A DNA stretch of 24,000 nt from Pseudescherichia sp. Lineage in GTDB: Bacteria; Pseudomonadota; Gammaproteobacteria; Enterobacterales; Enterobacteriaceae. Every line of letters begins with the position of its first letter. Positions within the stretch are counted from its first letter, which is position 1. Positions 4,390 through 21,462 of the stretch are shown here, in pieces. Both the position numbers and the translations under genes were made by a program. The notes beneath the pieces are model-generated. The model was not told the DNA's origin, did not search any database, and worked only from the letters and a program-made list of their open reading frames with translations. The DNA lies in the NCBI GenBank assembly GCA_032055545.1, contig DAMBQR010000050.1:4726-28725 (forward strand), read 5' to 3'.

Positions 4390-5436
4390 ATGTTTCCCGC
4401 ATTGCGCCACCTCGTTGTAGCTCTGGCGCTCGGTGTGTGCTTTTCCGTACCGGCGCAGGCAAAAGCCAGCCAGCCCGGCGCGATGGCCAGCGAGCAGGCC
4501 CGCCATATTGCCACCTACTTCCCGGGCCGCATGACCGGCACGCCTGCGGAGATGCTTTCAGCTGACTATCTGCGCCAGCAGTTTGCCCAGATGGGTTACC
4601 AGAGCGATATCCGCAAGTTCAACAGCCGCTACATCTACACCTCACGCAATAAGAGCCAGAACTGGCACAATGTGACCGGCAGCACGGTGATCGCTGCTCA
4701 TGAAGGCAAGCTGGCCCAGCAGATTGTTGTGATGGCACATCTCGATACCTATGCGCCGCGCAGCGATGCCGATAGCGATAACAACCTTGGTGGCCTGACG
4801 TTGCAGGGGATCGACGATAACGCCGCCGGGCTGGGGGTGATGCTGGAGCTGGCGGACCGGCTCAAGGATGTTCAGACCCAGTACAGCATTCGCTTTGTCG
4901 CCACCAGCGGTGAAGAGGAGGGACGGCTGGGGGCGGAAAATCTGTTGCAGCGCATGAGCGACGCCGAGAAGAAAAACACCTTGCTGGTGATCAATCTTGA
5001 TAACCTGATCGTTGGCGATAAGCTCTACTTCAACAGTGGAAAAAGCACGCCTGCTGCGGTGCGCAAGCTGACCCGGGATCGGGCCTTAGCCATCGCCCGC
5101 CAGCACGGTATTACTGCCACTACCAATCCAGGCCTGAACCCGGACTATCCGAAAGGCACCGACTGCTGCCACGATAGCGAAGTATTCGATCGGGCAGGTA
5201 TTCCGGTCCTCTCCATCGAGGCTACTAACTGGTCGCTGGGGAAAAAGGATGGCTACCAGCAGCGGGCAAAAACTAAGGCATTCCCCGACGGCACCAGCTG
5301 GCATAACGTGCGTCTGGATAACCAGCAGTTCCTCGACAGCGCCCTACCCGGCCGCATTGAGCGCCGCAGCCGCGACGTGATGCGTATTATGCTGCCGCTG
5401 ATGAAGGAGCTGGCGAAGGCGGAGAAGAACTCATAA
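4390..5436 (+). CDS. iap: alkaline phosphatase isozyme conversion aminopeptidase (M28 family), with signal peptide
   Basis: 348 aa: MFPALRHLVVALALGVCF...ARHIATYFPGRMTGTPAEMLSADY...GGLTLQGIDDNAAGLGVMLELA. Colinear with E. coli Iap and divergent from cysD as in K-12. Confidence 0.93.
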   Translation: MFPALRHLVVALALGVCFSVPAQAKASQPGAMASEQARHIATYFPGRMTGTPAEMLSADYLRQQFAQMGYQSDIRKFNSRYIYTSRNKSQNWHNVTGSTVIAAHEGKLAQQIVVMAHLDTYAPRSDADSDNNLGGLTLQGIDDNAAGLGVMLELADRLKDVQTQYSIRFVATSGEEEGRLGAENLLQRMSDAEKKNTLLVINLDNLIVGDKLYFNSGKSTPAAVRKLTRDRALAIARQHGITATTNPGLNPDYPKGTDCCHDSEVFDRAGIPVLSIEATNWSLGKKDGYQQRAKTKAFPDGTSWHNVRLDNQQFLDSALPGRIERRSRDVMRIMLPLMKELAKAEKNS

Positions 5437-5447
5437 ATCGAGTTTGG

Positions 5448-5480
5448 TAGGCCGGGCAAGCGCAGCGCTGCCCGGCGATG
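5448..5480. repeat. REP-like palindromic element / iap terminator hairpin
   Basis: The sequence is TAGGCCGGGCAAGCGCAGCGCTGCCCGGCGATG. The stem GCCGGGCA (5451-5458) pairs with TGCCCGGC (5469-5476). The same motif family occurs in the cysH-cysI gap (TAGGCCCGGTAAGCGAAGCGCCACCGGGC). Confidence 0.6.
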
Positions 5481-5504
5481 AGTGCTGTAGCAAGTCGGGG
5501 GAGA

Positions 5505-5906
5505 TTAGGCTTGCTTGAGTTCTTCAAAAATTTCGGGATGCTTATCGAGAGCCTTGAATAGCAACACAAGCGGACGTGGAGGAGCAACGCGACCTGTTTC
5601 ATACCGGCTAAAGGCATTTGCACCGCCACCAAAAATTTCAGCCGCCTGGCGCTGGTCAAGTTTGAAGCGCTTGCGGATCCTGGCAATAAACGCGGGATCA
5701 ACTTCCTGCGCATTCACTTCGCGATTAAAAGCGCCGATCGCCGCCATATACGTGTCGCCAGCTTCATCGTCTAAGATGCTCTCTCCGCACGCATCGCAAT
5801 AGTCACCGGTAATACCGTAAACCGTAGTTTTACGGCCTTTATACTCGTATTCAACGTTGCGGGTTTCATGTTTAAGATCTGAACCGCCACAGCCAGGGCA
5901 TTTCAT
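5505..5906 (-). CDS. mqsA: MqsA-family antitoxin (N-terminal zinc ribbon plus C-terminal HTH)
   Basis: 133 aa. The N-terminus MKCPGCGG...CDACGE is a CxxC..CxxC zinc ribbon. The C-terminus QRQAAEIFGGGANAFSRYETG is an Xre-type HTH. Size and architecture match MqsA/YgiT. Confidence 0.8.
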   Translation of the reverse strand: MKCPGCGGSDLKHETRNVEYEYKGRKTTVYGITGDYCDACGESILDDEAGDTYMAAIGAFNREVNAQEVDPAFIARIRKRFKLDQRQAAEIFGGGANAFSRYETGRVAPPRPLVLLFKALDKHPEIFEELKQA

Positions 5907-5908
5907 TT

Positions 5909-5965
5909 CTATAGCTCCTTAAATGAGACGATCTCAGCGCCATCTTTAACAATAAGCTTAAGAGC
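5909..5965 (-). pseudogene. 3'-terminal remnant of an mqsR-like toxin gene (about 18 codons plus stop)
   Basis: Minus-strand translation just upstream of mqsA reads ALKLIVKDGAEIVSFKEL*. This resembles the E. coli MqsR C-terminus (..YLKITVIHDVLIVSFKEK) as I remember it. The frame loses similarity at about 5965-5971, exactly where the AT-rich cassette ends. The remaining ~80 codons of a normal mqsR are absent. Confidence 0.55.
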
Positions 5966-5967
5966 AG

Positions 5968-6423
5968 TCACGAGGCGGGAAGGATACCCATCATTTTTAT
6001 TTCTTCTATATGCCTTTTGTTGAGATTAATCTCACACTGATCAATGAATGCTTGGTAATCGTAAGCATCTTCATTAATCTCTGTGGCCACTGCCAGGCAT
6101 AGATTTTTTCTATACTGCTTCCATAGCTTTTGGGCATTTAAGAAACGTTTGCTGTATACCTCTCCTGACGTTTCTGCTGCGGCTTCTTTTCCGTTAAATA
6201 AACCGACGTTATTAGCCTTAATGTTTTTGTTTGTTTCTATAATGACGCCTTCCAACTGTGATTCACTCTCGTTTTTTTTCTGTTGAAGGCATTTTCCTTG
6301 CTGATTCGGATCAGCATGCTGAGCAAAGCAGGCTTTTGCCTCTGAGCCTTCATATAGTGCAGCGCTAGTCAACATAGGAAAATGCAGCATGAAAATGGCA
6401 ATAATTAACACTATTTTCTTCAT
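5968..6423 (-). CDS. secreted DUF1311/LprI-like protein (putative lysozyme-inhibitor-type immunity protein)
   Basis: 151 aa with an N-terminal signal peptide (MKKIVLIIAIFMLHFPMLTSAA). It has the DUF1311-type pattern C..(n)..C ... FLNAQKLWKQYRKNLC ... C....NKRHIEEI. Its start overlaps the upstream gene's stop (ATGA at 6420-6423). The codon usage is AT-rich. Confidence 0.6.
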   Translation of the reverse strand: MKKIVLIIAIFMLHFPMLTSAALYEGSEAKACFAQHADPNQQGKCLQQKKNESESQLEGVIIETNKNIKANNVGLFNGKEAAAETSGEVYSKRFLNAQKLWKQYRKNLCLAVATEINEDAYDYQAFIDQCEINLNKRHIEEIKMMGILPAS

Positions 6424-7328
6424 TTCAAATACCTTAATCTCTGTCTATGATCTTCAAATCTCATATAATATATATCATTTTTGATATATGATCTTAACTC
6501 CTCTTTGCCAGCAATAGCTGCCTCAAAGAGGCTTCTTGCGTTATGTACGCCCTGATAAAAAACATCAACAATGACATCTCTTATTTTTAAGTTAAGTTTT
6601 TCCCACAGCGGCGCATTTGGTATAGCATGTGATACTCTTTGGTAAAGATTTTTCGCTTCTAGCAGTTTTATTTTGTAAGCTATCTCAAACAATCGTACCT
6701 GTTGTAAATGCGTGATTTCACCGACCAGTGGGCCATATGATTTTACGAAATCATGGGCTTGTCGTCCAACGAGCCCAGCAGCGTTAGAGCAAATAACCCC
6801 TTTATACTCCTCGATTCTGGCTTGTCTGAAATGCATCATTATTTCGCCAGCGCTACGGCTTTTCATATCGTAGCCACGTCCTATGGTGACACCGGATAAA
6901 CCAGCTGGCCAGTGAAGGACTCGCGAGAAAAGTTTCAAGTTTTCAGGCTGGCGAAATGGTTCTGGTCCTCGTAAATAGTCTATTCCTTCAGCATCAAAAG
7001 TAATCTGGCCTTCACGAACGTGCAGTGGTCCAGTATCACGAGGCCGCCAATGAGGCGCTATAGCCTTACTGAACATAGAGAAAAACCAGACCTGTTGTGG
7101 GTGAACTAAGCCAGATGAAGACATATTCAATAGTCGTTGATACCAGATAATTGCTGCATTTGTTTCCGGGTCACATTGACCGGTAATACGAAGATGATGA
7201 CCATGGATATGGTTGTAACCAGCATCAATCATCATTTTCTGTAGCGTTCTAACCTCTTCTGGTGCATTGACACCAAAGACACCGATAGAACCAGCGGGGT
7301 GAAATACACGGGGTGAATGGTAGGGCAC
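6420..7328 (-). CDS. putative peptidoglycan-binding, lysozyme/pesticin-like muramidase (candidate antibacterial effector)
   Basis: 302 aa with a GTG start preceded by AAGGAG, and no signal peptide. The N-terminal segment (EEVRTLQKMMIDAGY...TNAAIIWYQRLL) resembles a PG_binding_1 motif. The central REGQITFDAEG...GVTIGRGYDMKSRS resembles the catalytic Glu and G.TIG.G.D signature of T4-/pesticin-type lysozyme folds. This is a motif-level inference only. Confidence 0.5.
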   Translation of the reverse strand: MPYHSPRVFHPAGSIGVFGVNAPEEVRTLQKMMIDAGYNHIHGHHLRITGQCDPETNAAIIWYQRLLNMSSSGLVHPQQVWFFSMFSKAIAPHWRPRDTGPLHVREGQITFDAEGIDYLRGPEPFRQPENLKLFSRVLHWPAGLSGVTIGRGYDMKSRSAGEIMMHFRQARIEEYKGVICSNAAGLVGRQAHDFVKSYGPLVGEITHLQQVRLFEIAYKIKLLEAKNLYQRVSHAIPNAPLWEKLNLKIRDVIVDVFYQGVHNARSLFEAAIAGKEELRSYIKNDIYYMRFEDHRQRLRYLK

Positions 7329-7484
7329 GGTGTTTTGCTCCTTGTCTCTTAAGTGATGATAATCTTTAATTCATTGATTTAATGAATAAATAGCCTACTC
7401 TCACTGACTTTTTTTCCGATTCTACCCCTACTTTCAACCCTGACCCTATCCTAAATTTACTACCCCCTACTCTCAGCTCAAAAA

Positions 7485-7518
7485 ACCCCAAAAAAATGCC
7501 GACCCTAAAGTCAGCATT
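7485..7518 (-). terminator. duplicate copy of the cysH rho-independent terminator (probably terminates CRISPR-1 transcription)
   Basis: On the minus strand the stem ATGCTGAC (7517-7510) pairs with GTCGGCAT (7503-7496, with one G.U pair), followed by a T-run (7495-7490). It is paralogous to the terminator at 21411-21447. Confidence 0.6.
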
Positions 7519-7537
7519 TTTCGTCCGGTGCGTTATA

Positions 7538-7667
7538 TCACCCTTCGTGCAGCCCACATTCGCGCTTGAGGCCGAAGAAGCGGGTCTCTTCCTCCGCCAT
7601 GCCCGGCTCCCATTTGCGGGTGGTATCTCAGGCCATACTTCTGCAGATACTGGTAAACGGTACGGTT
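7538..7667 (-). pseudogene. cysH 3'-end fragment (cysH')
   Basis: 7530-7624 is 95/95 identical to 21455-21549 (the cysH stop codon plus the last 28 codons). 7625-7667 matches 21597-21639 at 36/43. The 47 bp between two GCGGGTGGT direct repeats of intact cysH is missing, which causes a frameshift. There is no 5' part of the gene. Confidence 0.85.
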
Positions 7668-8240
7668 TATCTCCACGCATGTGGAGAAAGCGTGGTGAAT
7701 CAGCAGCAGTATTATACCTTCTACGGTGTATCCCCACGTATGTGGGGAACACCCGCGAATCTGCGTTTTCCAGGCCTCGCCCTCCGGTTTATCCCCACGT
7801 ATGCGGGGAACACTAATCATTTGGCCCTAGAGCGATGACAGCGCACGGTTTATCCCCACGTATGTGGGGAACGCCTGATAAATTTCGGATTGAATCTGTT
7901 GTTCAGCGGTTTATCCCCACGCATGTGGGGAACGCGCATTTGAGGGATTCGCAGCTCGTTATCTAGTCGGTTTATCCCCACGCATGTGGGGAACGCAGTC
8001 TGGCCAGTGCTGGCGAAAGATGATGCCCCGGTTTATCCCCACGCATGTGGGGAACGCGGCTGAACAGCAGGCCGTAGTTGAGACGTGCACGGTTTATCCC
8101 CACGCATGTGGGGAACGCATCAAACGTTGCCGCACGGAATAAACCATAATCGGTTTATCCCCACGCATGTGGGGAACGCCACTCCTGCAAACGCCGGCGC
8201 ATGATCGCCGGCGGTTTATCCCCACGCATGTGGGGAACGC
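7663..8240 (-). CRISPR. type I-E CRISPR array 1 (10 repeats, 9 spacers of 32 bp), transcribed on the minus strand from the cas2-proximal leader
   Basis: 29-bp repeats start at 7663, 7724, 7785, 7846, 7907, 7968, 8029, 8090, 8151 and 8212, an exact 61-bp period. Plus-strand consensus is CGGTTTATCCCCACGCATGTGGGGAACGC. The oldest repeats (left end) are degenerate. Orientation is inferred from the GCGTTCCCC....GGGGATAAACCG sense form on the minus strand and from the AT-rich leader at the right end. Confidence 0.97.
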
Positions 8241-8324
8241 TCTAAACATACATCATTGAATTAAAATAATTTTATCACTACCAAAAATCCTACCGATTTT
8301 TTCACTTTTTTAAAGAGCACTAAC
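8241..8324 (-). promoter_or_regulatory. CRISPR-1 leader (84 bp between the cas2 stop and the first repeat)
   Basis: This AT-rich stretch begins TCTAAACATA next to the newest repeat (minus sense ..TATGTTTAGA|GCGTTCCCC). That matches the leader-repeat junction I remember from E. coli K-12. No promoter was mapped. Confidence 0.7.
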
Positions 8325-8621
<297 letters not shown>

Positions 8622-9539
8622 TTATGTGCTCCTGTGCCCAGCGTCGCCGAGGCTAGCAGGAAGAGGGATAGCGATAGGTTGAGCATCGGCGGGCGGCGGC
8701 GGTGGCGAAATGTCTCCTGCCGCTAATACCTCTTCGATTAGTGGGATCAGCCTGGCGAGAGTTTTTCCGCTGCGGAAAATATCCCGGCATGCCAGCCTCA
8801 CTTCACGATCGGGTTCAGTGGGATTATTTCTTACGATTTCAAAGGCTTTTGGTACAACGGTATCAAACTTGATGATATCGGCAATATCATAAACAAAGGA
8901 AAGTGGCTTACCGGTATGTACAAAACCAATGGCTGGCGCATAACCTGCCGCCAGCACAGCCGCCTCGGTAACACCATAAAGACATGCCGTTGCAGCACTA
9001 ATGCACTGATTAACTACATCACCCTTTTCCCAATCCTTAGGATCGTACCGGCGCCCATGCCACTTAACGCCATACTGCTTGGCTAATAAGGTGTATGTTG
9101 CGCGTACCCGACTTCCTTCAATGCCGCGTAACTGTTCAACTGAACGCCGTGCCGGAGGTGGTTCGCCAAAACGTAACTCAAACATTTTACGTACCACCTT
9201 CAGCCGCAGGTCTTCATCAAGCGCCAGCTTCGCCTGGTATAACAGATGATCGGAACGCGCTCCGCCCGGCTGCCCGGTGGCATACAGCCGGACGCCTGCC
9301 TCCCCAACCCAAACCAGCAGCGTACCTACCGTAGCCGCCAACCGCACCGCGGCGTGAGAAACTCTCGTACCTGGCTCGAGCATGATGCAGGCTACAGAAC
9401 CGACCGGGATATGCGTCCGAACGCCGGTTTTATCGATGAGCACAAACGCGCCGTCAATCACATCAATCTGACCATATTGCAAAAAAATCATTGAAACACG
9501 ATCTTTAAGTGGGATGGGGTTCAGAGGTATCCAGCTCAT
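8622..9539 (-). CDS. cas1: CRISPR-associated integrase Cas1 (I-E)
   Basis: 305 aa, the same length as E. coli Cas1e, with conserved blocks (..IFLQYGQIDVIDGAFVLIDKTG.., ..GFVHTGKPLSFVYDIADI..). Position is between cas6e and cas2. Confidence 0.96.
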   Translation of the reverse strand: MSWIPLNPIPLKDRVSMIFLQYGQIDVIDGAFVLIDKTGVRTHIPVGSVACIMLEPGTRVSHAAVRLAATVGTLLVWVGEAGVRLYATGQPGGARSDHLLYQAKLALDEDLRLKVVRKMFELRFGEPPPARRSVEQLRGIEGSRVRATYTLLAKQYGVKWHGRRYDPKDWEKGDVVNQCISAATACLYGVTEAAVLAAGYAPAIGFVHTGKPLSFVYDIADIIKFDTVVPKAFEIVRNNPTEPDREVRLACRDIFRSGKTLARLIPLIEEVLAAGDISPPPPPADAQPIAIPLPASLGDAGHRST

Positions 9540-10246
9540 TAACGCCGCCTTTTAACCATCAGCATGCCGCATCCCAGGGATTTACTTTTGCCGATACCAT
9601 TAAAGAGTGCCTGGGAAAAACGGCTGGGATCGGTGATCACCAGCGCTCCGGCATAGTCAACGCTGCTGTAGGCTATAGGATTTTCACCTTGCCTGCGCTG
9701 AAAACGATGCTGCTGATAGGCCAGCACGCTTACTCCTGCCGAGGCTGGCTCATCTGTACCATCCGGATCGGCCCATATGGCAAAATCATCGACCGCAGGC
9801 GCAACCAGACGAAAACCGTGCTGCTCGCCCTGCTTTTCCAGCCAGGACTGCGCCGCATCGACCTGTAATCCCCACCACTTTTCACTGGCAATATTCTCTG
9901 CTTTAGCCTGGAACTTGGCGTTCATTAATACATCCGAACGTTTTTTATCACGACAGACAACCGGGTTTGCGCGCAGCTGGAAATCAAGCTGCTGTCCCTT
10001 GTTCAAGGCCGGGGTAAAAGGTTTGGTCTCAATCGTAAACAGGTCGTGCTGTTGAACAGGCGCTGTCTGTGAAAGCATAAAAAAGCGCGCCTGCGGCTCC
10101 TGACGAAACAGAAAGTGGCGTTCGTCACAATCTGGAAAAAGCTGCCATAGCCATTGGTGACTGGCATAAGGTGCGGCATGCGTCCATTTTTGCAACATGC
10201 CCGGTTGCAGGCGATCGAGGTGAAGCTGTATGCGCGACAGGTACAT
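9539..10246 (-). CDS. cas6e: Cas6e (CasE/Cse3) pre-crRNA endoribonuclease
   Basis: 235 aa. It has an MYLSR.. N-terminus and a C-terminal GIG.SKSLGCGMLMV glycine-rich loop typical of CasE. The operon position is right, and there are 1-nt start/stop overlaps with cas5e and cas1. Confidence 0.9.
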   Translation of the reverse strand: MYLSRIQLHLDRLQPGMLQKWTHAAPYASHQWLWQLFPDCDERHFLFRQEPQARFFMLSQTAPVQQHDLFTIETKPFTPALNKGQQLDFQLRANPVVCRDKKRSDVLMNAKFQAKAENIASEKWWGLQVDAAQSWLEKQGEQHGFRLVAPAVDDFAIWADPDGTDEPASAGVSVLAYQQHRFQRRQGENPIAYSSVDYAGALVITDPSRFSQALFNGIGKSKSLGCGMLMVKRRR

Positions 10247-10971
10247 TATTCTCCCTCCCTGAGCGACCCGCTATAGCGAATATAGCGACCAAACTGCCAG
10301 CGTCGGCGGCTGACAGGCTGATTATTGCAGTGCTGCTGCGTTTGCCATACCAGACTGCTTTCGTCAGGATCGTCCCAGTAGCATGTCTCTCCCCCCTGGG
10401 CAATCATCATCAATTCTGACGCGGTGAGTTGCTCAGCGGCCTGGTTAAAAATCTGCTTGAGCGTTCCTTCCAGCAGCCGGGGGGCGAGCGGCAGGGCCAG
10501 TGGGCAAGATTTGCGCCCCAGATAGAGCGGAAAATGTGGCTTGATAAGCGAATCGCGAAGTATCTCCAGTGGCACCGGTGCTCCTTCTGTTGCACTGACC
10601 GCAACGTGCCAGTAACCATCACAGCGATACTCTCGCTGTGTAACGATGGTACCTATTTCATCAGGAGCCAGTCGCAGCTCATCCCGCCGGGTAGCATAGC
10701 GATACTTTTTATTTTCGCGCGGCATGCTAACGGTGTGATAATCCCGTAGCCAGCGCTCGCATGAAGAGAGTGGTCTTACGGCCAGATGATAGTGCTGGTT
10801 AAAATTATTCAGCACCTCCTCTTCCTCACGGCAAATTCCTTGTGCTGCCGCAAGCAAGCCTAAGATTGCCGATCGTGTTGGAATTGTTGCAGTATGCCGT
10901 ACCTCACCTACGGCCTCTTCACCCCAGGCGGCCAGCGGCGCATACAGCTGAAAAACAAGATATTGCTTCAT
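10246..10971 (-). CDS. cas5e: Cas5e (CasD) Cascade subunit
   Basis: 241 aa. The N-terminus M..YL.F.L.AP...WGE......R.T...PTRSAILGLL.AA.GI and the ..YLGRKSCPL.. block are as in CasD. Confidence 0.92.
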   Translation of the reverse strand: MKQYLVFQLYAPLAAWGEEAVGEVRHTATIPTRSAILGLLAAAQGICREEEEVLNNFNQHYHLAVRPLSSCERWLRDYHTVSMPRENKKYRYATRRDELRLAPDEIGTIVTQREYRCDGYWHVAVSATEGAPVPLEILRDSLIKPHFPLYLGRKSCPLALPLAPRLLEGTLKQIFNQAAEQLTASELMMIAQGGETCYWDDPDESSLVWQTQQHCNNQPVSRRRWQFGRYIRYSGSLREGE

Positions 10972-10980
10972 TAGCTGTCC

Positions 10981-12039
10981 TTACTGGCTTACAAAATCCA
11001 GTAGCGCGGATAACGAACCTTCGCCTTTGTCAGCGTTCAGCTCATAGTGGCTCTCGGCGCACTGACCATAGACGCGATCAAAATTGTCGCGCTGATGTTT
11101 CAGGCATGCAATTGCCGTTGGCAGGATGTTTTCGCCACGTACGGGCTGGAAAAATGCCACCGCCAGCGAGCGAGGTTGTTTAGTGCCCATTTCTGCCAGT
11201 GCATAGGAGGCGTAAGCGCGGGAGGCAAAACTGTTCTGTTTTCCGCCTGGCGATACGGTTAGCGCCGTTTCAGTCAGCGCCGCGATGGCGCGCCGGGCCA
11301 GATCCTCATCACCATCAAGGTTTTTAACCAGCAGATTGCGACTAATACAGATGTAGCTATAGAAGAGCGCGGAGGCAAAACCCTGCTCACCCATATGAGC
11401 CGAACCTTTATCCTCTTCACCCGTGTTGAGATCGTCCACCGCCGTAAAGAAATCATCTTCAATGGTCACGGCGCTAACGCCTAATGCATGCGCAACCTGG
11501 CAAGCGGCTTCGACGTTAAAGGCTGGCGATGAAGCCAACATGCGACCAAATAGAGCCATATCTACACTGTGTTGATCTTTGCGCAGGAGTTCCAGCTCCT
11601 CACCCACTGGTTCTCGACTCTCACTAATCAGCTTACCCACTAGCTGCTTAATGAGGGCGATCTCATGCGTGCTGACGTGCACCAGCTGCTCAATTTCCAG
11701 GTTCTTAACGGGTGCAGCACCTTTATCATTTTTTACTTTTCCAAACTGACCGGCAATTTTTTCTGCTGCGGCTTTTGCTATTTTTTCACTCACGCCTGCG
11801 GCAGTCATTGGCTGATAGACATACTTAACGCCCAAAAGTCGGGTGCGCTCGCCGATATGCCCGTCCATTGCCGACTCAAACGTTTCTGATACCCGCCAGG
11901 CACGCTTCAGGCTTTGGGAGGAGACACGAAGGCGTTCAACGCCGCCCATTTTAGCTGTTTTCGGCCGACCAGAGTCATCCCGGTTGAGGTTAGAGGGGGC
12001 ATAGGCAGTGAGAAAGTGCAGCTGAATAAACGTAGTCAT
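10981..12039 (-). CDS. cas7e: Cas7e (CasC) Cascade backbone subunit
   Basis: 352 aa. ..SNLNRDDSGRPKTAKMGGVERLRVSSQSLKRAWR.. matches the CasC signature (..CLNRDD....K.A.FGG..R.R.SSQSLKRA.R). Confidence 0.95.
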   Translation of the reverse strand: MTTFIQLHFLTAYAPSNLNRDDSGRPKTAKMGGVERLRVSSQSLKRAWRVSETFESAMDGHIGERTRLLGVKYVYQPMTAAGVSEKIAKAAAEKIAGQFGKVKNDKGAAPVKNLEIEQLVHVSTHEIALIKQLVGKLISESREPVGEELELLRKDQHSVDMALFGRMLASSPAFNVEAACQVAHALGVSAVTIEDDFFTAVDDLNTGEEDKGSAHMGEQGFASALFYSYICISRNLLVKNLDGDEDLARRAIAALTETALTVSPGGKQNSFASRAYASYALAEMGTKQPRSLAVAFFQPVRGENILPTAIACLKHQRDNFDRVYGQCAESHYELNADKGEGSLSALLDFVSQ

Positions 12040-12061
12040 TATAAGTCCTTATCAAAAATAA

Positions 12062-12652
12062 CTAGCGGGCTGAGAGATACTCATTCGCCCAGCGAATACG
12101 GTTACGGGAGAAGGGATCTATTGATTCTGGTTGGTGCTCTTCGCGCGCCTGCCATTCACGCATCCATAGAAAAATGCCGTCGGCCAACGAGAGAATATTG
12201 ACGCCGTCCTTGCCTCGAAGCCTGACGGCGCGGATGAGCTGCTGGCAGAAACTCTCCGGATCGGCAGCCTGTTGCAGGCGTTCAAACCGCAGGCGGGAGA
12301 GGTATAGCCGATCGTTTTTCTTCTGTCCGAGTTGAGCGGCAAAGCTGGGAAAAGAGACATTTTTTTCTACGTGTACAGCCACCGAGGCAAATACCGCCAG
12401 CGCCATTTGGTCTACAGGCTGGAGCGACATCTGTTGCTGAAGCTGACGCCGTAGCTCAGCATACCCTTCGCACATCATGACGCCATAAGGTGGCTCCATC
12501 CGACGTAGCTCAGCTCGCCAGGCGCGACCGTTGATTCGTTTTTCATCCTGCTTACTGTAGCGATCCGATAAAATAGTAAACCACTCGGTGAGCACCTTTT
12601 GCGCTGCGGGCTGGGTAAATATGCGCTCCTGTGCTGTGTTGCTGTTAAGCAT
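12062..12652 (-). CDS. cse2: Cse2 (CasB) Cascade small subunit
   Basis: 196-aa, alpha-helix-rich, basic ORF in the canonical position between cse1 and cas7e. It overlaps the cse1 stop by 8 bp. The call rests on position and composition rather than on sequence I recognise. Confidence 0.8.
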   Translation of the reverse strand: MLNSNTAQERIFTQPAAQKVLTEWFTILSDRYSKQDEKRINGRAWRAELRRMEPPYGVMMCEGYAELRRQLQQQMSLQPVDQMALAVFASVAVHVEKNVSFPSFAAQLGQKKNDRLYLSRLRFERLQQAADPESFCQQLIRAVRLRGKDGVNILSLADGIFLWMREWQAREEHQPESIDPFSRNRIRWANEYLSAR

Positions 12653-14204
12653 TCTGCTCCTCCGCCTCTTTCGCCAGATCCAAGAATTGCGTGCGTGTTT
12701 TTAACTTGTCGTAATCCCGGTCCAGCTTGCTTCTGGCGGTCAGCTGGCGTAGCAACGTGCCGTCGTCGCAGTCTGGATCGATAAACACCTCACGATCGAA
12801 AAAATTGATAACGTCATGATGCAGACGCTTTTCCCACTCCCTTAGCGCTTCTCGGGTAAGCAGATTTTCCCGTGCCGGATCGCTACTTAACGTTTCCAAC
12901 AGCTGACGAAACGCAGATTCGGTCTCCTGCCAGAAAGCAGTCTCAAGCAGGCTAAAATCGGCTTTTGCTTCGCTCGGTGTCGGGAACCATGCTGCCTTCA
13001 GCCACTGCTTTAAGAGGCGCAGCGAGTCGCTGGCAAGTGATAGCGTGTAGTACATAACGCTGCTCAACGCGTTATCATCAGGCGAGTTAACAAGGGGAAT
13101 ACGATGCTGATACCAGCAACGGGCTTTGGCGTTATCCATATCCCAGGCAAAGCACCACAGGCCCGTTGCGGGTAGCCGTCTGGGAAGTTTTTGCACGACC
13201 CTGGCAGGCTGAATGCGATTGAATTTATCTTCGCCCTCTAGCAACAGACCTAACCAGTCTTTATAGCTCAGGCCACCGGGCTGCCCTTTCAACGATAGCC
13301 AAGGTGCTGCTTGATCTTTTAACGCCTTTCGGTAAGGAGAGAGCGGATGCCGCCAGCCGTCATACTGCACGCCATAGTTTTTGGTACGCATTTCCCGTAG
13401 TAGCATCGGATGGTGCTCTCCACAGAGATCGCAGCTTCCTTCTACCGTTTTCTCGAAATCCAGTTCGATCCGTCGCGGCATTCCCCAATAAGCCTGCAAT
13501 ACATGCGCATTGTCTGGCGTTACGATGTTTCCAGCCTTCTCACTGGTTTTCGTTGGCGCAAGCCAGGGGAAAATAGCGGCATATTCGGACGGGATCGGGC
13601 GCTTCTCTTCCGGGATCACATTGAGCCAGAGCTTTTTCCACAGCGGGAAATCACGCTCCTGCTGGGGCACCACCAGCGTGGTTAAGGGGCCGCCGCCGCG
13701 TAGACCCACGCGATACCCTGCCCCACCTGCAGGCGAATTGGTTTGCACTGCAAAAAGCGCCATTACTGCACAATGAGGGCAGATCTGCTGTCCAACGTGG
13801 CGTTTTACGAAATGGTCTTTGTTGAGCTTCAGCGTATTGCCGCCGGGGGCATCAATTAACAGGCCAGCAATAGAGCTGTTTTCGCTCTCAAGCGACTCAA
13901 AGCTTTGCAGAAATGCAGGCTTTTCTGCACCGAACTGCATCGCTGGAGATATGGCCGAAAGTGCACTTTGCCACGCTTGTTGATCAATGCCGTTTTTCCA
14001 CACTTCCCGCCACTTCCGCTCATCTACGGGCGCGACGGTTGTTTGCAGTAATCCAATCAGCATCTGCCATGCAGCCCCCTGGAAATCGGCTCGGGGATAG
14101 CTGACATCGATGACGTTGTCATCCAGCAGGTTGGTGAGGGGGATTTTTGTTGTTTTTCCTGAATAACAAACAACAGGCAGCCAAGGTTCCGTAATTAAAT
14201 CCAT
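12645..14204 (-). CDS. cse1: Cse1 (CasA/Cas8e) Cascade large subunit
   Basis: 519 aa. The N-terminus MDLITEPWLPV is comparable to E. coli CasA (MNLLIDNWIPV). Internal ..G.GYR.GLRGGGPLTTLV.. is comparable to ..GFKSGLRGGTPVTTFV... It is the first gene after the cas3 gap and is preceded by AAGGAG. Confidence 0.93.
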   Translation of the reverse strand: MDLITEPWLPVVCYSGKTTKIPLTNLLDDNVIDVSYPRADFQGAAWQMLIGLLQTTVAPVDERKWREVWKNGIDQQAWQSALSAISPAMQFGAEKPAFLQSFESLESENSSIAGLLIDAPGGNTLKLNKDHFVKRHVGQQICPHCAVMALFAVQTNSPAGGAGYRVGLRGGGPLTTLVVPQQERDFPLWKKLWLNVIPEEKRPIPSEYAAIFPWLAPTKTSEKAGNIVTPDNAHVLQAYWGMPRRIELDFEKTVEGSCDLCGEHHPMLLREMRTKNYGVQYDGWRHPLSPYRKALKDQAAPWLSLKGQPGGLSYKDWLGLLLEGEDKFNRIQPARVVQKLPRRLPATGLWCFAWDMDNAKARCWYQHRIPLVNSPDDNALSSVMYYTLSLASDSLRLLKQWLKAAWFPTPSEAKADFSLLETAFWQETESAFRQLLETLSSDPARENLLTREALREWEKRLHHDVINFFDREVFIDPDCDDGTLLRQLTARSKLDRDYDKLKTRTQFLDLAKEAEEQNA

Positions 14205-14222
14205 TCCCTTTACTCCTTTAAG

Positions 14223-14244
14223 GCTGGCTCCGGGCGGAGCCAGC
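14223..14244 (-). other. perfect GC-rich hairpin between the sORF stop and the cse1 RBS
   Basis: GCTGGCTCC (14223-14231), loop GGGC, GGAGCCAGC (14236-14244). No U-run follows on the minus strand, so it is not a canonical terminator. It could be an attenuator, a processing site or an RNA-stability element. Confidence 0.5.
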
Positions 14245-14251
14245 AGAGGAT

Positions 14252-14332
14252 CTACGAGCGTCGTAACCAGAACATCAAGACGCCTACTAACATGAGCATC
14301 TCCTGATGGTTAAAGAGCATCGTGATTTGCAT
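14252..14332 (-). CDS. candidate 26-aa hydrophobic small ORF (MQITMLFNHQEMLMLVGVLMFWLRRS)
   Basis: ATG at 14330-14332 is preceded by AAGGAG (14345-14340) with a 7-nt spacer. The peptide has a hydrophobic core and an RRS tail. It lies inside the 79-aa track ORF, whose own start (TTG) lacks an RBS. No homology is known to me, so coding status is unproven. Confidence 0.35.
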   Translation of the reverse strand: MQITMLFNHQEMLMLVGVLMFWLRRS

Positions 14333-14462
14333 CGACGAACTCCTTTTATTGTCTGAAAGGAAGACGCCACTTAGAATGCAGTTGTCTAGGCCGCTCCAGT
14401 AATGACATCCGTCTCCTGAAGGCAGTGCCATTGCTGGGGCACTTTTAGCCTTAGTTGTCAAA

Positions 14463-14491
14463 AGCATAAACCTCAATAAATCCATGGTCAA
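14463..14491 (-). promoter_or_regulatory. candidate sigma70 promoter for the sORF / Cascade operon (Pcas-like)
   Basis: On the minus strand: TTGACC (14491-14486), a 17-nt spacer, then TATGCT (14468-14463), with an AT-rich UP-like tract just upstream. This is a sequence-pattern prediction only. Confidence 0.3.
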
Positions 14492-14500
14492 TAAAATAAC

Positions 14501-14523
14501 AAGTTAGTAAAGCCATATAACGT
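14501..14523 (+). promoter_or_regulatory. PAM-flanked partial protospacer matching the mini-array pseudo-spacer (candidate Cascade binding site)
   Basis: AAG|TTAGTAAAGCCATATAACGT compared with pseudo-spacer TTAGTAAGGCCGTATGAAAT. The AAG PAM is present, positions 1-7 are exact, and 15/20 positions match overall. The mismatches at 8, 12 and 16 are spacer-G versus A, which would be rG:dT wobble. Positions 12 and 18 are sixth-position bases. Confidence 0.45.
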
Positions 14524-14563
14524 TACTGTGATTGGTCGAGCTGCCAGGCTTTGTTATCATGAG

Positions 14564-14641
14564 TCATTCCCCGTATGCACGGGGATAAACCGTTAGTAAG
14601 GCCGTATGAAATTCGTTCCCCGCGTCAGCGGGGATTTCAAG
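14564..14641 (+). CRISPR. degenerate inverted mini-CRISPR: psiR-a, 20-nt pseudo-spacer, psiR-b (candidate crRNA-like regulatory RNA gene)
   Basis: psiR-a (14564-14592) is TCATTCCCCGTATGCACGGGGATAAACCG. psiR-b (14613-14641) is TCGTTCCCCGCGTCAGCGGGGATTTCAAG. Both keep a 6-bp stem and 4-nt loop hairpin. psiR-a keeps a perfect ATAAACCG handle. psiR-b has lost the handle and overlaps the cas3 stop codon (14637-14639). The sense orientation is on the plus strand, opposite to both arrays. Derivation from CRISPR repeats is clear; function is inferred. Confidence 0.65.
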
Positions 14642-17333
14642 GTTTAACCAATCCAAACCGCTTGCTGTAATACGCTGCTTCCCCCTGTTCAGAAACCAGT
14701 AATATCTGCGCTACTGGGCGGTGTAGCCGCTTACGGAACGCCTCCAGCAATTCTTCATTCGGCAGCGAGAAGCGGGACATGTTTTGCTTCCACCAGCTGG
14801 CTCGCACCTGTACGCGACTCATCTCCCAGCGAAAATCACCCTCTTTTACTACCGGCTGGAGCTGCCCATCGTCATCCAGCCAGGCAACGTAGACATCCAC
14901 GCTGGCCTCGCCCAGGCGAGTGGAAAATTCACGCCCCTCGTCCCAAAGAAAATCGCTGGCATCCTGGTGATAACCTTTATCGCGCTGCAACAAATTTTGC
15001 CTGGCGGCCGCGCGTTGGCTCAGCAGTGCGCCAAAGACGTTATCCTCAATGCCCTGCAATCCCGGCGGGGCAGGGATTTTTCCTTCGTATACGCCATCAA
15101 TTAACGTTCGCGCCATCTCTGGCATTTTGATTTCACCGTACTGACGCAGCAGTTTTTGCGTTCGCCACAGGCAGGCGTGATCGGTATAGACATAGCCCGT
15201 ACCGCGTAGCGTATCTCCCAGCCAGCCATCCTTAGCCTCTTCCTGCCATTCAGGAGCCAGGATATGCAGTACCGGAGAGCGACGCTCATCGGGCAGGTGT
15301 GATTTACAGACACCGTTTGCATCGCGAATATGTCGTTGCAATCGGCCTGCGCGCTGGATCAGGAGATCGACAGGCGCCAGATCGGAAATCATCCAGTCGA
15401 AATCAAGATCGAGACTCTGCTCCACAACCTGGGTTGCGATCAGTACCTTGCCGCGACGCTGCTCAGGCAAGGCATCTTTGCCAAACCAGGCCAGCGTGTT
15501 CTCTTCGATCGTCATACGATCGGCATAGGCAAAGCGGCTGTGGAATAGCAGGAGATTTTGCTGGGCTATCTTTCCTTCATTCAACAGACGCAGGAAAACC
15601 ATGAGCGCATCGTCAACGGTATTACGCACCCAGCAAATGCACTGCCCTGCTTCCACTACCTGGTAGATAATCTCCAACGCGCGATCGATGTCGTTTAGCC
15701 AGTTAACGGCAACGCAGCGCTTAACCTCCTGCCGCGTTTGTAACTGGTGCTCCTGCAATCCTGTAGATGAGAGATGGCTAAGCCATGGATAGCCAGCATC
15801 AAGGCTGGGATTTGCTGCGGCAAAACCAGCACCTTCAGCAAATGCAATCATCAGCTTCTCTTTAAGCGTTGCCGGAAGTGTGGCGGTTAACACTATGGCG
15901 CTTCCACCCTGTGCAGCATGAAACCACAGCAGCCCTTCCAGCAGCTTCACCATATATCCATCGTAGGCGTGCACCTCGTCGAGGATGAGAATCTTGTCAC
16001 GCAATCCGACCAGACGTAACGACTGGTGACGGAATGGCATAACCGCCATGAGTACCTGGTCCAGCGTGCCGACGCCGACTTCAGCCAGCAACGTGGTTTT
16101 ACGTGAATCAGCGAACCATGCATTGCACTCTGCGCTGGCGCTGGCATCGTCCTTGGCATAATGAGCTGTCTGGCTTTCATCCGTCTGCCAGACAGACTGG
16201 CGAAACGAAGTCGACATGTGCCTGGCACCGTGGGCCAGCACCAGCGAGGGACGCGCTGTATCAGAGAACAGTTTGCGGTACGCTTTTCCCAGCCGCTGAT
16301 ACATCGCGTTTGAGGTCGCCATCGTTGGCAGCCCAATATATAACCCTTTCCCCTTACCGGCTGACATTAGACGATGAGCGAGTATCATCGCCGCTTCTGT
16401 TTTACCTGCGCCAGTAACATCTTCTAGTACAATTAACTGAGGACCAGCAGATGAAATATCGAGATCGGCTGCACGCTGCTGGAGCGGCGTTAGCGAGTGA
16501 ATAAAGGGAAACAGCGTCTGATGCCCCTCGTAGCGACGAGTAACTGATGAAAGAGGAAGCGTGGACAGAGCTTTTTTGGCTTTATTGCAGGCGATTAACC
16601 AATATTTCTCAAGCGGCATGGGTTGGCTATTGAAGGAAAAGTGGTTTTCATCAGACCCAAGCCAATCCGCTAGCGTCATTACTCCCGCAAAAAACCAACT
16701 TTGCTGCTGTAATTTCTTAATCCACTCATCTTCTTGCCACTCTGCAGGAAGTGTATCAACTGAAAAAAGATCGCCTAATGCCGTTAAATATTGATTAGCC
16801 GAATGGATATCATCTTTTGTAAAAGCCGTGGCATAACGATGTTCTGGTTTATCCGGCGGAATACCGTGATGCCCTGTGCTTATTGCCATCCATATATCGA
16901 GAGCGTAAATGAATTCATCACGCTGGTCAGGTAGTATTTCAGAGAAGAGTCCACCTCGGCCTTCAAGCCAGTCAGTTTCGAGCTTATCCCAGAGCCAGAA
17001 GCCAAGCGAATCATGCCGTGCCGGAGTGTTGATACCTGCAGCAGGGCTAACCAGCGGAGAGTCTGGATGGGCGGCTAGCCGTTGAAAGCCGTTAGCAAAT
17101 TTACCCAGGTCATGGCTGGCAAAAAGGTAGCTTATCCAGCGATATCCAAAATCCGAGGCGAGTCCTAACTCTGCAAGCGCTTCGCGCATTCCAAAACGAT
17201 TTTCACTCGCCATAGTATACCCACATGCAGCAACGTCCAGGCAGTGGTAAACCAGTAGATGATAATTATCGCCGGTGGTTACTGTTTTTCTGGATTTGCC
17301 CCAATAACGGAGATAGCTTGCTTCAAAGCTCAT
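14637..17333 (-). CDS. cas3: Cas3 HD nuclease / SF2 helicase (I-E)
   Basis: 898 aa. It has an N-terminal HD domain (..HCLDVAA...HDLGKF..), helicase motifs (..TGAGKTEAA.., ..LILDEVHAYD..) and a C-terminal domain. Size is similar to E. coli Cas3 (888 aa). Confidence 0.97.
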   Translation of the reverse strand: MSFEASYLRYWGKSRKTVTTGDNYHLLVYHCLDVAACGYTMASENRFGMREALAELGLASDFGYRWISYLFASHDLGKFANGFQRLAAHPDSPLVSPAAGINTPARHDSLGFWLWDKLETDWLEGRGGLFSEILPDQRDEFIYALDIWMAISTGHHGIPPDKPEHRYATAFTKDDIHSANQYLTALGDLFSVDTLPAEWQEDEWIKKLQQQSWFFAGVMTLADWLGSDENHFSFNSQPMPLEKYWLIACNKAKKALSTLPLSSVTRRYEGHQTLFPFIHSLTPLQQRAADLDISSAGPQLIVLEDVTGAGKTEAAMILAHRLMSAGKGKGLYIGLPTMATSNAMYQRLGKAYRKLFSDTARPSLVLAHGARHMSTSFRQSVWQTDESQTAHYAKDDASASAECNAWFADSRKTTLLAEVGVGTLDQVLMAVMPFRHQSLRLVGLRDKILILDEVHAYDGYMVKLLEGLLWFHAAQGGSAIVLTATLPATLKEKLMIAFAEGAGFAAANPSLDAGYPWLSHLSSTGLQEHQLQTRQEVKRCVAVNWLNDIDRALEIIYQVVEAGQCICWVRNTVDDALMVFLRLLNEGKIAQQNLLLFHSRFAYADRMTIEENTLAWFGKDALPEQRRGKVLIATQVVEQSLDLDFDWMISDLAPVDLLIQRAGRLQRHIRDANGVCKSHLPDERRSPVLHILAPEWQEEAKDGWLGDTLRGTGYVYTDHACLWRTQKLLRQYGEIKMPEMARTLIDGVYEGKIPAPPGLQGIEDNVFGALLSQRAAARQNLLQRDKGYHQDASDFLWDEGREFSTRLGEASVDVYVAWLDDDGQLQPVVKEGDFRWEMSRVQVRASWWKQNMSRFSLPNEELLEAFRKRLHRPVAQILLVSEQGEAAYYSKRFGLVKP

Positions 17334-17532
17334 TCATCACCTCAATATAAAGTGACGTAATAGTATTATTTATCGATAATGCAGAAATATGACAGCAGTC
17401 GCAATCCGGAAAGATAAACATAATGTAGTTTTATGCAACTAAACATTAAAAATAGTCATTTTAGTTAAGTCATTTATTTTGTGTGGCGAGTACGCAAAAA
17501 ATTAACAACAGCATGAAATGAGAATTCAATAA

Positions 17533-17568
17533 ATTGTATTTTCATTGTACTAAATCTACAATGTAGAT
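17533..17568 (+). promoter_or_regulatory. candidate mazEF promoter with overlapping palindromic operator
   Basis: TTGTAT (17535-17540), a 16-nt spacer, then TACAAT (17557-17562). ATTGTA half-sites occur at 17533-17538 and 17544-17549, with an inverted TACAAT at 17557-17562. The palindrome ATCTACA-A-TGTAGAT spans 17554-17568. All of this lies 26-60 bp upstream of the mazE ATG. Confidence 0.45.
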
Positions 17569-17593
17569 ACGACATGATTACGATGAGGTTGAT

Positions 17594-17842
17594 ATGATCC
17601 GAGGTAATATTAAGCGCTGGGGAAACTCTCCTGCGATCAGGATCCCAACAACGTTAATGCAGGCCCTTAATCTTAATATTGATGATGAAGTTAAGATCGA
17701 TTTGGTAGAAGGTAAGCTTGTCATCGAGCCAGTAAGGAGCGGATCTGAGTTTTCGCTTGCGGAACTGGTTGAAGAGATCACCGCCGATAACCAACATGAG
17801 CTGGTGGAATGGGGTAAACCTGAGGGTAAGGAAACCTGGTAA
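17594..17842 (+). CDS. mazE: MazE antitoxin (AbrB/SpoVT fold)
   Basis: 82 aa. ..[41 protein letters not shown]... is near-identical in blocks to E. coli MazE (..[41 protein letters not shown]..). Confidence 0.92.
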
Positions 17843-18175
17843 ATGATAAGTCAATTTGTACCCGATTCAGGGGATCTTATATGGGTTGATTTTGACCCAA
17901 CTAAAGGAAATGAACAAGCAGGACATCGTCCTGCCGTGGTGCTAAGTCCATTCATCTATAACAATAAAACGGGGCTTTGCCTTTGTGTTCCCTGTACCAC
18001 AAAGGCAAAAGGCTACCCTTTTGAAGTAGAATTCTCCGGTGAGCGTAACGCAGTAGCGCTTGCCGATCAGGTGAAATGCATCGCCTGGAAAGTCAGAAAC
18101 GCAGCGAAAAAAGGCAGAGTAACCGAGCAGGAACTCGACGTGATCAGAGCTAAGGTTAAAGCCTTAGTAGGGTAA
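17843..18175 (+). CDS. mazF: MazF mRNA interferase toxin
   Basis: 110 aa. ..YVPDSGDLIWVDFDPTKGNEQAGHRPAVVLSPFIYNNKTGLCLCVPCTT..KGYPFEV.. closely matches E. coli MazF. The ATG directly follows the mazE TAA. Confidence 0.95.
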   Translation: MISQFVPDSGDLIWVDFDPTKGNEQAGHRPAVVLSPFIYNNKTGLCLCVPCTTKAKGYPFEVEFSGERNAVALADQVKCIAWKVRNAAKKGRVTEQELDVIRAKVKALVG

Positions 18176-18247
18176 TACTTCAAGCGGTTAATATTTGCCC
18201 ATAATCCACCATATGGATATAATTAAATTACCAAATGGAGATCAACC

Positions 18248-18691
18248 ATGAAAACGTTTAGCGTATCTACGACTCAGGCCAGGCCACCCCGTTTATGGCA
18301 GGTAGCTGGTTTAAACAATGCTGATGGTGTGGCATTGCTGGGTCAGATTAATGAAGGTTTGGATGGCAAGGTTGCTAGCCTGATCGTTGACTGGGCGAAG
18401 ATAACGCAAAACGACCTGCGTAAAATGTCAGGTATCCCATCAACCACATTCAGCCGCAGTTTGAAAGCGCGATTCAGTGCTGACCAAAGTGAACGGCTGG
18501 TGCGCATCATTCGTGTCCTTGATCGGGCAGTAGAGTTGTTTGAAGGCAATAAGGATGAAGCGCAAAAATGGTTGAATGAGCCTAACCGTGCGCTGGGCTG
18601 GAAAGTGCCGGCAGACCTGATGGCATCCGAAACCGGAGCTTATGAGGTTATGAAGCTGATCACTCGTCTGGAGCATGGGGTCTACTCTTGA
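18248..18691 (+). CDS. Xre-like / DUF2384-type antitoxin of a RES toxin
   Basis: 147-aa ORF whose stop overlaps the start of the RES gene (TTGA at 18688-18691). The C-terminal ..A..WL..PN.ALGG/W..P.DL... pattern is typical of the DUF2384 antitoxin domain. The call rests on motif plus gene pairing. Confidence 0.75.
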   Translation: MKTFSVSTTQARPPRLWQVAGLNNADGVALLGQINEGLDGKVASLIVDWAKITQNDLRKMSGIPSTTFSRSLKARFSADQSERLVRIIRVLDRAVELFEGNKDEAQKWLNEPNRALGWKVPADLMASETGAYEVMKLITRLEHGVYS

Positions 18692-19158
18692 TCCTCTATC
18701 GTCTTACAAAGACAAAGTATCTTTCTACATCCTGGACGGGGTATGGAGCGAAAGAGGCTGGAGGCCGCTGGAATAGCGTCGGCACATCGATGGTTTATGT
18801 ATCGGAAACGGCATCGTTAACCATGCTGGAAACGTTAGTGCACCTGCGGGCGGCACAGATTATGGATTATTTCACGCTGTTGAGTATTGATGTGCCTGAT
18901 GACCAGATTCAAAAGGCCAATATGGAAGAAGTACCTGATAACTGGGCTGATGAAGAGGCACCACCGGAGCTAGCCGCTTATGGTGACGCCTGGTGCTTCA
19001 CTAAGGCATCAATAGCTCTGCGTGTGCCCAGTGCCTTATCGCCAGTGGAATATAACTATCTGCTTAACCCTGAACACCCCGGTTTCTTCGAGCTGACACA
19101 AAAATCAAAAGCCATTCCGTTTCAATTCGACAGTCGGTTAAAACCCGATCGTAAGTAG
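18688..19158 (+). CDS. RES-domain toxin (NAD+-targeting family)
   Basis: 156 aa with a TTG start. ILYRL.K.KY......G.GA...GGRWNS.G...VY.SET.SL..LE.LVH is the canonical RES-domain N-terminal signature (Arg-Glu-Ser). Confidence 0.85.
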   Translation: MILYRLTKTKYLSTSWTGYGAKEAGGRWNSVGTSMVYVSETASLTMLETLVHLRAAQIMDYFTLLSIDVPDDQIQKANMEEVPDNWADEEAPPELAAYGDAWCFTKASIALRVPSALSPVEYNYLLNPEHPGFFELTQKSKAIPFQFDSRLKPDRK

Positions 19159-19260
19159 TGACCATGAAGGACGTTGCACCCGGTTACGCTGAACTGATTA
19201 AGGAGACCCCATGTACTACCCTAAGCGAGGGCATTTCTAGTTACCGTAAAGGAGCTAAAA

Positions 19261-19554
19261 ATGTCCAACTTCAATACTCGAAAAGACCGTGATCGTCACG
19301 GTAAAGCCAACCCCCATTTCCGTATCAAGTACCCCTCACGCTGGGGTGTAATGTATGTCCACCATTATGATCAATATGGAGCGAACACACCGGCTTGCAA
19401 TTACGATAAAAACCCTGGCTGGTGGAATCGAATCAATACCACTCGCCGCCGTCGAGCTGCCGATCGCCTGATGCTCACCAGCATTCTTCGTGGTGTCGAT
19501 CCTGATGGTGTTACCTGGCTGGCTGACAAGCGTCCCAGTATTTATTACTGGTAA
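19261..19554 (+). CDS. hypothetical basic protein (97 aa)
   Basis: A strong RBS (AAGGAG, 6 nt upstream of the ATG). The protein is rich in R, K, H, W and Y (..KNPGWWNRINTTRRRRAADR...KRPSIYYW). I do not recognise the family. Confidence 0.6.
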   Translation: MSNFNTRKDRDRHGKANPHFRIKYPSRWGVMYVHHYDQYGANTPACNYDKNPGWWNRINTTRRRRAADRLMLTSILRGVDPDGVTWLADKRPSIYYW

Positions 19555-19590
19555 AGCTAAACGCGCCGCGTACAGGAGTCTGTCAGTACG

Positions 19591-21203: not shown

Positions 21204-21310
21204 TCTAAATACAGTTCCTTGTTTTTAAAGAGCTTTTTTAGCCATTAATAATCTACCAACTTATAATCAACAACTACGCTTCATGAGCCTTTCCGTAATA
21301 GACTGATTTT
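21204..21310 (-). promoter_or_regulatory. CRISPR-2 leader
   Basis: An AT-rich stretch beginning TCTAAATACA next to the newest repeat (compare TCTAAACATA at array 1). It shares a TTTTTAAAGAGC motif with leader 1. The distal boundary is set where similarity to the 7381-7529 duplicate begins. No promoter was mapped. Confidence 0.6.
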
Positions 21311-21410
21311 AAATAAAGAATAAAAAAATCACTTATGATAATTCCAATTTTACCGTTGCCTACCACCGTCACCCTAACCTAAATCAATCTTCCACCCACT
21401 CTTAGCCAAA

Positions 21411-21447: not shown

Positions 21448-21462
21448 TTCAAGAGCGTTATA

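Follow-up and report, generated by a model that had tools for sequence, protein, structure and literature searches.

Why should a complete type I-E CRISPR-Cas locus lie between a functional cysH and a displaced second copy of the 3' end of the same gene? The DNA analyzed here (24,000 nucleotides, the window) is the cysDNC-iap to cysHIJ region of a Pseudescherichia species, and its flanking genes are 92-96% identical to those of P. vulneris NBRC 102420 and of several Pseudescherichia and Enterobacteriaceae MAGs. For the same interval in E. coli, passages of Almendros et al. (2014, mBio, PMC3903273) describe cas and array modules that are gained, lost, and swapped through recombination in their flanks, with the terminal degenerate repeat proposed as a recombination "anchor." An earlier note on the window had claimed that a direct duplication in the same orientation brackets the segment carrying the CRISPR-Cas and TA genes and had taken it for a footprint of the way in which the I-E locus entered, or was swapped at, the iap-cysH hotspot. 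The duplication is confirmed by alignment and the footprint stands as one of recombination, but not as the general entry route of the I-E locus.

On the low-coordinate side of the window, cysC, cysN, and cysD (minus strand) come before iap (4390-5436, plus strand). There follow, on the minus strand, an intact mqsA (5505-5906) and the final 54 bp of mqsR (5909-5962), a toxin gene cut short by a two-gene cassette (5968-7328, minus strand) that left mqsA as an orphan antitoxin gene. The cassette is made up of a 302-aa gene (6420-7328), whose protein contains a PG_binding_1 domain and shows weak pesticin/lysozyme-like similarity, and a 151-aa gene (5968-6423) that is LprI-like (lysozyme inhibitor family); the pair looks like a toxin/immunity cassette. 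Beyond it lie the displaced cysH end, which belongs with the cassette, and then CRISPR array 1 (7663-8240, minus strand; 10 repeats, variant GCGTTCCCCACATGCGTGGGGATAAACCG, with the oldest, degenerate repeats at the low-coordinate end), leader 1 (8241-8324), and the cas operon (cas2, cas1, cas6e, cas5, cas7, cse2, cse1, and cas3; 8325-17333, minus strand). A mazE-mazF pair, an Xre/RES (ParST-like) pair, and a 97-aa ORF for which a family scan gave no match occupy 17594-19554 on the plus strand, followed by CRISPR array 2 (19588-21203, minus strand; 27 repeat units, variant G(A/C)GTTCCCCGCGCCAGCGGGGATAAACCG), leader 2 (21204 to ∼21340), and the intact cysH (21463-22197, minus strand), which encodes a PAPS reductase of 244 aa and is itself followed by cysI. 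The set of I-E genes is full (cas3-cse1-cse2-cas7-cas5-cas6e-cas1-cas2) and the arrays have a 61-bp period, as expected of 29-nt repeats with 32-nt spacers. NCBIfam models match above cutoff for every cas gene except cas3, which scores 484 against a cutoff of 569 with the full-length equivalog model and passes with the Cas3 core and HD domain models.

The two arrays, which flank a single cas operon, differ in repeat variant (CCCCACATGCGTGGGG for array 1 and CCCCGCGCCAGCGGGG for array 2): a compensatory stem pair is changed and the loop is different, and the terminal repeat of array 1 also has a compensatory pair (CTCC...GGAG). The difference in variants suggests a mosaic origin for the locus. 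Within array 2, the repeat at ∼20382-20410 has lost 1 nt of its stem (CCC for CCCC), with the register of the array moved by one base. A further observation concerns the cas3-cse1 intergenic region (14205-14636), which in the operons of relatives is only ∼19 bp long. Right after the cas3 stop it holds two CRISPR-repeat-like units, inverted with respect to both arrays, that read on the plus strand as CATTCCCCGTATGCACGGGGATAAACCG (14565-14592), a 20-nt pseudo-spacer TTAGTAAGGCCGTATGAAAT (14593-14612), and TCGTTCCCCGCGTCAGCGGGGATTTCAAGG (14613-14640). The pseudo-spacer partly matches 14504-14523 (at positions 1-7, 9-11, 13-15, and 17), a target that is preceded by the I-E PAM AAG and adjoins a sigma-70-like promoter directed toward cse1 (14491-14463, minus strand). 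This stretch (14501-14640) looks like a candidate for a CreR-type mini-array that autorepresses Cas, of the kind reported for I-E systems (bioRxiv 10.1101/2023.03.10.532045).

The left copy (7366/7413-7667) is a pseudo-copy, here called cysH', of 21296/21341-21639 in the same orientation, and both comprise distal leader-2/intergenic DNA, the cysH terminator, and the 3' end of cysH, all on the minus strand. Start to start, the copies are 13,925 bp apart, with array 1, cas2-cas3, mazEF, Xre/RES, the 97-aa ORF, and array 2 between them. At the center of the left copy, 7530-7624 is identical to 21455-21549 at 95 of 95 positions, a block that spans 8 bp 3' of the stop, the cysH stop itself (21463-21465), and the final 28 codons, and that has an indel at each border. 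Next to it the left copy lacks 47 bp, and the gap is bordered by a 9-bp direct repeat (GCGGGTGGT, plus strand) of which one copy is kept at 7616-7624; a gap of this kind between short repeats is a replication slippage signature. Beyond the gap, a decayed internal fragment of cysH (7625-7667) matches 21597-21639 at 36 of 43 positions, or 45 of 52 if the 9-bp repeat is counted (local alignment z = 19.5 against dinucleotide shuffles). The identity of the block, the deletion, and the tail are thus as the earlier note had given them. Its remaining claim on the alignment, that the leftmost ∼150 bp are recognizably similar, also stands. From 7413 to 7529 homology to 21341-21454 is clear (score 99 against a shuffle mean of 18, z = 30). 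Pairwise homology of 7381-7412 to the right copy is not significant, but here two relatives (L036 and L010b) bridge both sequence types and extend the homology to ∼7366 in the left copy and ∼21296 in the right; the left boundary in the earlier note erred, if at all, on the side of caution. Outside the 95-bp block the copies are 10-25% diverged.

As had also been claimed, the left copy stops at the oldest repeat of array 1, within the terminal degenerate repeat (7663-7691), whereas the right copy runs on into the intact cysH, with its product of 244 aa, and the left copy holds a second cysH terminator. A terminator scan places hairpins with T-tracts on the minus strand of both copies, at 7522-7491 (T-tract at 7481-7490) and 21450-21421, each of them, on the transcribed strand, a GC-containing hairpin with a T-tract behind it, with predicted folding energies of -19.5 kcal/mol (z -4.9) on the left and -18.9 kcal/mol (z -6.2) on the right. 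For transcripts of array 1 the second terminator lies downstream and in the correct orientation, as predicted, so that the terminator of the pseudo-copy may well end transcription of array 1. The conserved intergenic DNA corresponds to no known RNA, with no Rfam match at gathering thresholds.

Comparison with relatives indicates what each copy belongs to. Genomes that share the exact CysH protein have very different fillings between cysH and iap: mqsRA only (L001 and L007), two array-2 repeats with RES/Xre/mazFE (L002, L005, and L006), a decayed island (L004), or the full island (L003). In L004 (4316-5010) a 603-bp internal fragment of cas3 is fused directly to an array-1-type repeat, after which come a single spacer, a terminal repeat, and mqsRA; it is the remnant of a decayed island, in a genome whose CysH protein is identical. 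A cas-less relative of the kind that the earlier note had suggested for comparison is the P. vulneris type strain NBRC 102420 (L009), in which one uninterrupted stretch holds intact cysH, terminator, intergenic DNA, 302-aa gene, 151-aa gene, mqsR remnant, an mqsA truncated by a 170-bp deletion, and iap, and the cysH-iap interval contains no CRISPR-Cas. There is a single copy there, 209 bp separate cysH from the 302-aa gene, and both copies of the window map to it: window segments 24000-21342 and 7624-5719 fall on L009 positions that overlap at 9708-9917. The terminator and intergenic segments of the left copy are of the L009 type (52/57 and 41/44 identical) rather than of the right-copy type (45/55 and 24/42). 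Part 1 of the left copy (7366-7490), an intergenic and distal leader-2 remnant that forms the upstream region of the 302-aa gene, is collinear with L009 and L010a, where an intact cysH precedes the same DNA, and the right copy (21296-21639) for its part lines up with leader 2 in the manner of L002, L010b, and L036.

The last of these, L036, has a CRISPR-containing locus that covers the whole interval from cysH to iap; array 2 has at least 57 repeats there, and the cysH end is single. Its distal leader 2 bears features of the cassette type, which implies that the cassette took the place of the CRISPR locus, starting ∼115 bp upstream of the first array-2 repeat and reaching through the 5' part of mqsR. 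In ∼20 cas-bearing loci of relatives, L036 among them, reached through Cas2 homologues, no cysH' lies downstream of cas2; array 1 is absent or reduced to one repeat and its trailer abuts mqsR or iap. Together with the single cysH end of L036, these loci, an outcome that the earlier note had itself named as counter-evidence, speak against the duplication as a general route of I-E entry. More widely, most other Pseudescherichia cas loci have lost array 1 (0-1 repeats), some have a 164-aa gene between cas2 and iap, and the cas operons of L017 and L019-L036 are 83-87% identical in DNA to that of the window (8304-19257), with housekeeping flanks at 92-96%. In a distant-mode search of 5,426 complete E. 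coli genomes the cysH end was found in exactly one place in each (5,426/5,426), so the hotspot does not generally carry a cysH', and megablast of 5440-7700 against the same genomes gave no match. Exact-protein look-ups with the 302-aa protein (one short contig) and with Cas2 returned the same strain only, and in a metagenome scan the 302-aa protein matched only two loci, distant and Erwinia-like, neither of them near cysH; in Erwiniaceae the 302-aa/151-aa pair is not near cysH.

Nor does cysH' behave as a companion of CRISPR-Cas. Enterobacteriaceae bacterium UBA7338 (L010) has at 11383-11830 a second, independent, and more decayed cysH' (∼100 bp) with terminator, leader 2, and three array-2 repeats, lying between the 151-aa gene and the 97-aa/RES/Xre genes, and this array remnant is accompanied by no cas genes. 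Judged by gene order in L009, L010, and L017, the cysH' flank goes with the 302-aa/151-aa cassette and not with CRISPR-Cas. We considered a single event shared by L010 and the window and rejected it, as the cysH' of L010 breaks ∼100 bp ahead of the stop and that of the window ∼185 bp ahead, and the allele types are opposite. Illegitimate joins inside the 3' end of cysH have thus occurred at least two times in the genus, which indicates that crossovers anchored in cysH recur.

The history of the junction itself is constrained by L017 (GCA_032009985.1), a genome ∼8% diverged from that of the window, in which the order is cas2, array 1 (12 repeats), cysH', its terminator, its intergenic DNA, a deletion in place of the 302-aa gene, the 151-aa gene, a truncated mqsA, and iap. 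L017 agrees with the window in the junction of the repeat with TACCGTTTACC, in the 47-bp deletion, and in substitutions of the pseudogene, and the junction must therefore be old and have arisen once. Identity between the two is ∼91% in the cysH' flank and ∼91-93% in the flanks overall (housekeeping genes ∼92%), against 83-86% in the cas genes, and the last spacers differ in L017. Diverged cas genes and spacers within conserved flanks fit a later exchange of the module between conserved anchors.

L017 also bears on the claim that the perfectly identical block reflects gene conversion, and here the claim holds up. Ectopic gene conversion is known to occur between functional genes and pseudogene fragments paralogous to them, and the present case resembles it in having an identical tract, short at 95 bp or more, that is bordered by heterologies (indels of 47 bp and 4 bp at its two edges) within otherwise diverged repeats. 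The orthologous block of L017 is L009-like and differs from that of the window at 4 sites, and other genomes differ from the block at 3-10 sites. Where cysH' of L017 and the functional cysH of the window differ, cysH' of the window follows the functional copy at all four sites inside the block; of the 33 informative sites outside it, 8 agree with the functional copy and 25 with L017 (Fisher p = 0.0075, with small numbers). Paralogues are thus closer than orthologues inside the tract and the reverse is true outside it, and a T at 7556 is unique to the two copies of the window among all genomes seen. The 95-bp block is best explained as a gene-conversion tract from functional cysH, a reading for which four sites are informative.

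How, then, did a cysH end come to be joined to a CRISPR repeat? On the minus strand the motif AACCG (CGGTT on the plus strand, 7663-7667) is both the 3' end of the repeat (..GATAAACCG) and part of cysH (..GGGACAACCGTAC..), and the illegitimate junction falls on these 5 bp of microhomology, ∼185 bp ahead of the cysH stop. We think it probable that the left copy is a recombination scar that fused two alternative cysH-iap alleles in tandem. The first would be a CRISPR-containing allele in the order cysH, terminator, leader 2, array 2, TA genes, cas operon, leader 1, array 1, (mqsRA), and iap. The second would be a CRISPR-less allele in which the cassette had replaced proximal leader 2 through 5' mqsR, leaving cysH, terminator, distal leader remnant, 302-aa gene, 151-aa gene, the mqsR remnant, mqsA, and iap. 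The window would then correspond to the CRISPR-containing allele from cysH through array 1, joined at AACCG to the CRISPR-less allele from there on. The most likely route, we infer, is import of DNA from a related strain and homology-facilitated illegitimate recombination (HFIR), with one homologous crossover in cysHIJ or in mqsA-iap-cysDNC and one illegitimate end-join. Both the cysHIJ and the iap-cysDNC flanks are 92-99% identical among relatives and could have served as the homologous anchor. The displaced cysH' would then have decayed through the 47-bp slippage deletion and the point changes that are common to the window and L017, and later, in the lineage of the window only, ∼95 bp of it would have been converted by functional cysH. 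Across the 10.8-kb cysHIJ flank, sliding-window identity to L001, L002, L009, and L010 gave no import boundary.

HFIR combines one homologous anchor with one join at 3-10 bp of microhomology and requires no dedicated recombinase (PMC6382021); the 5 bp of AACCG lie within this range, and among the assigned genes and scanned proteins between the copies (7668-21310) there is no integrase, transposase, or recombinase. The experiments that established it (de Vries & Wackernagel 2002; Prudhomme et al. 2002, summarized in PMC6382021) used naturally transformable bacteria. Unlike them, the present case concerns an enterobacterium and comes from comparative genomics alone, and it counts against our explanation that HFIR has been demonstrated in naturally transformable species and is not known from Enterobacteriaceae, that a microhomology of 5 bp is short, and that the donor lineage was not found. 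The usual descriptions of HFIR have recipient DNA replaced or deleted and not duplicated, whereas a join inside the anchor gene, as here, duplicates ∼300 bp. Compared with the exchange of modules in E. coli, the hotspot is the same and the genomes that share the junction likewise have cas genes (83-86%) less alike than their flanks (∼91-93%), in keeping with the passages of PMC3903273. Those passages mention no cysH pseudo-copy, and in the window, unlike in E. coli, an illegitimate crossover within cysH would have put two alleles in tandem.

A further complication for the tandem fusion comes from the 170-bp deletion in mqsA (window coordinates 5549-5718), which is common to the cassette-bearing L009, L010, and L017 and absent from the window. 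All four combinations of junction and deletion occur, since the window has the junction only, L017 has both, L009 has the deletion only, and L025 has neither, and so either loss of the island or additional recombination is needed. These combinations would be easily explained by an origin in cis, if L009 lost the island through the repeats. Under this alternative, which we consider unlikely, an unequal exchange between sister chromosomes at AACCG would have duplicated the whole segment from the cysH 3' end to array 1 in tandem, the 302/151 cassette would next have replaced the stretch of the second copy that runs from proximal leader 2 to mqsR, and CRISPR-less genomes of the L009 type would have arisen last, by recombination between cysH and cysH'. 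It yields the same junction and the same structure at the ends, and it agrees with the derivation of the cassette-side intergenic DNA from leader 2. It also demands that an unstable tandem duplication of 13 kb persist until the replacement struck exactly the second copy; moreover, divergence between the intergenic segments on the left and on the right amounts to 18-43%, and the cassette adjoins an intact cysH in L009 and L010 alike, which are separate lineages.

The mechanism to which the earlier note had likened the duplication, that of the e14 prophage at icd', fares worse. There, integrase-mediated insertion into the 3' end of a gene supplies a functional replacement end and leaves a displaced pseudo-end, and a CRISPR-Cas element that targeted the 3' end of cysH in this way would produce the same topology, with functional and pseudo 3' ends flanking the inserted DNA as direct repeats. 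Unlike at icd', no integrase, excisionase, or other recombinase gene is found in or beside the segment and no identical att-like core at its borders, which are formed by the join of CRISPR repeat and cysH, where the pseudo-copy breaks with only 5 bp shared, and by ordinary leader-2 DNA. The divergence of the copies outside the converted block, the presence of the island without the duplication in most relatives, and the single cysH end in every complete E. coli genome searched also speak against it, and we regard site-specific integration as highly improbable. An artifact such as an assembly mis-join at a repeat, or a chance similarity, has in its favor the general risk near CRISPR arrays and nothing further, and it is scarcely credible given z values of 19-30 against shuffles, the agreement of three independent assemblies, seen in the 100% matches of a JGI metagenome contig (L003) to the right part of the window (11463-24000) and of two Logan contigs (L014 and L008) across the left copy, and the orthologous junction in L017.

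The left copy may also matter for the future of the locus. Deletion through the direct repeats, which the earlier note had raised, is plausible: the 95-bp perfect repeat should permit precise, RecA-dependent loss of the 13.9-kb island with cysH left intact, and a crossover within the identity would give intact cysH followed by the cassette, that is, a locus like that of L009. The four combinations of junction and mqsA deletion are suggestive of such loss, although they are not proof of it. They also hint at a bolder and rather doubtful reading, in which the cysH/cysH' repeats make the island both excisable by RecA and re-insertable in the manner of Campbell, flipping the locus between CRISPR-containing and CRISPR-less states with no harm to cysH, and with the P. 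vulneris type strain as a deletion product; were this true, the excised circle could enter any related cysH by homologous recombination.

Current understanding is unchanged by these findings. At iap-cysH, recombination in conserved flanks already counts as the accepted mechanism, and known processes account for cysH' as a recombination scar specific to its lineage. The locus does offer, at nucleotide level, an example of how a complete I-E locus can be gained at this hotspot, or can be joined to a competing allele, without the machinery of a mobile element, which should be useful to studies of CRISPR gain and loss and of the turnover of defense islands. One crossover of the fusion lies inside a CRISPR repeat, and the scar that it left would also give the island a ready-made way to be lost precisely.
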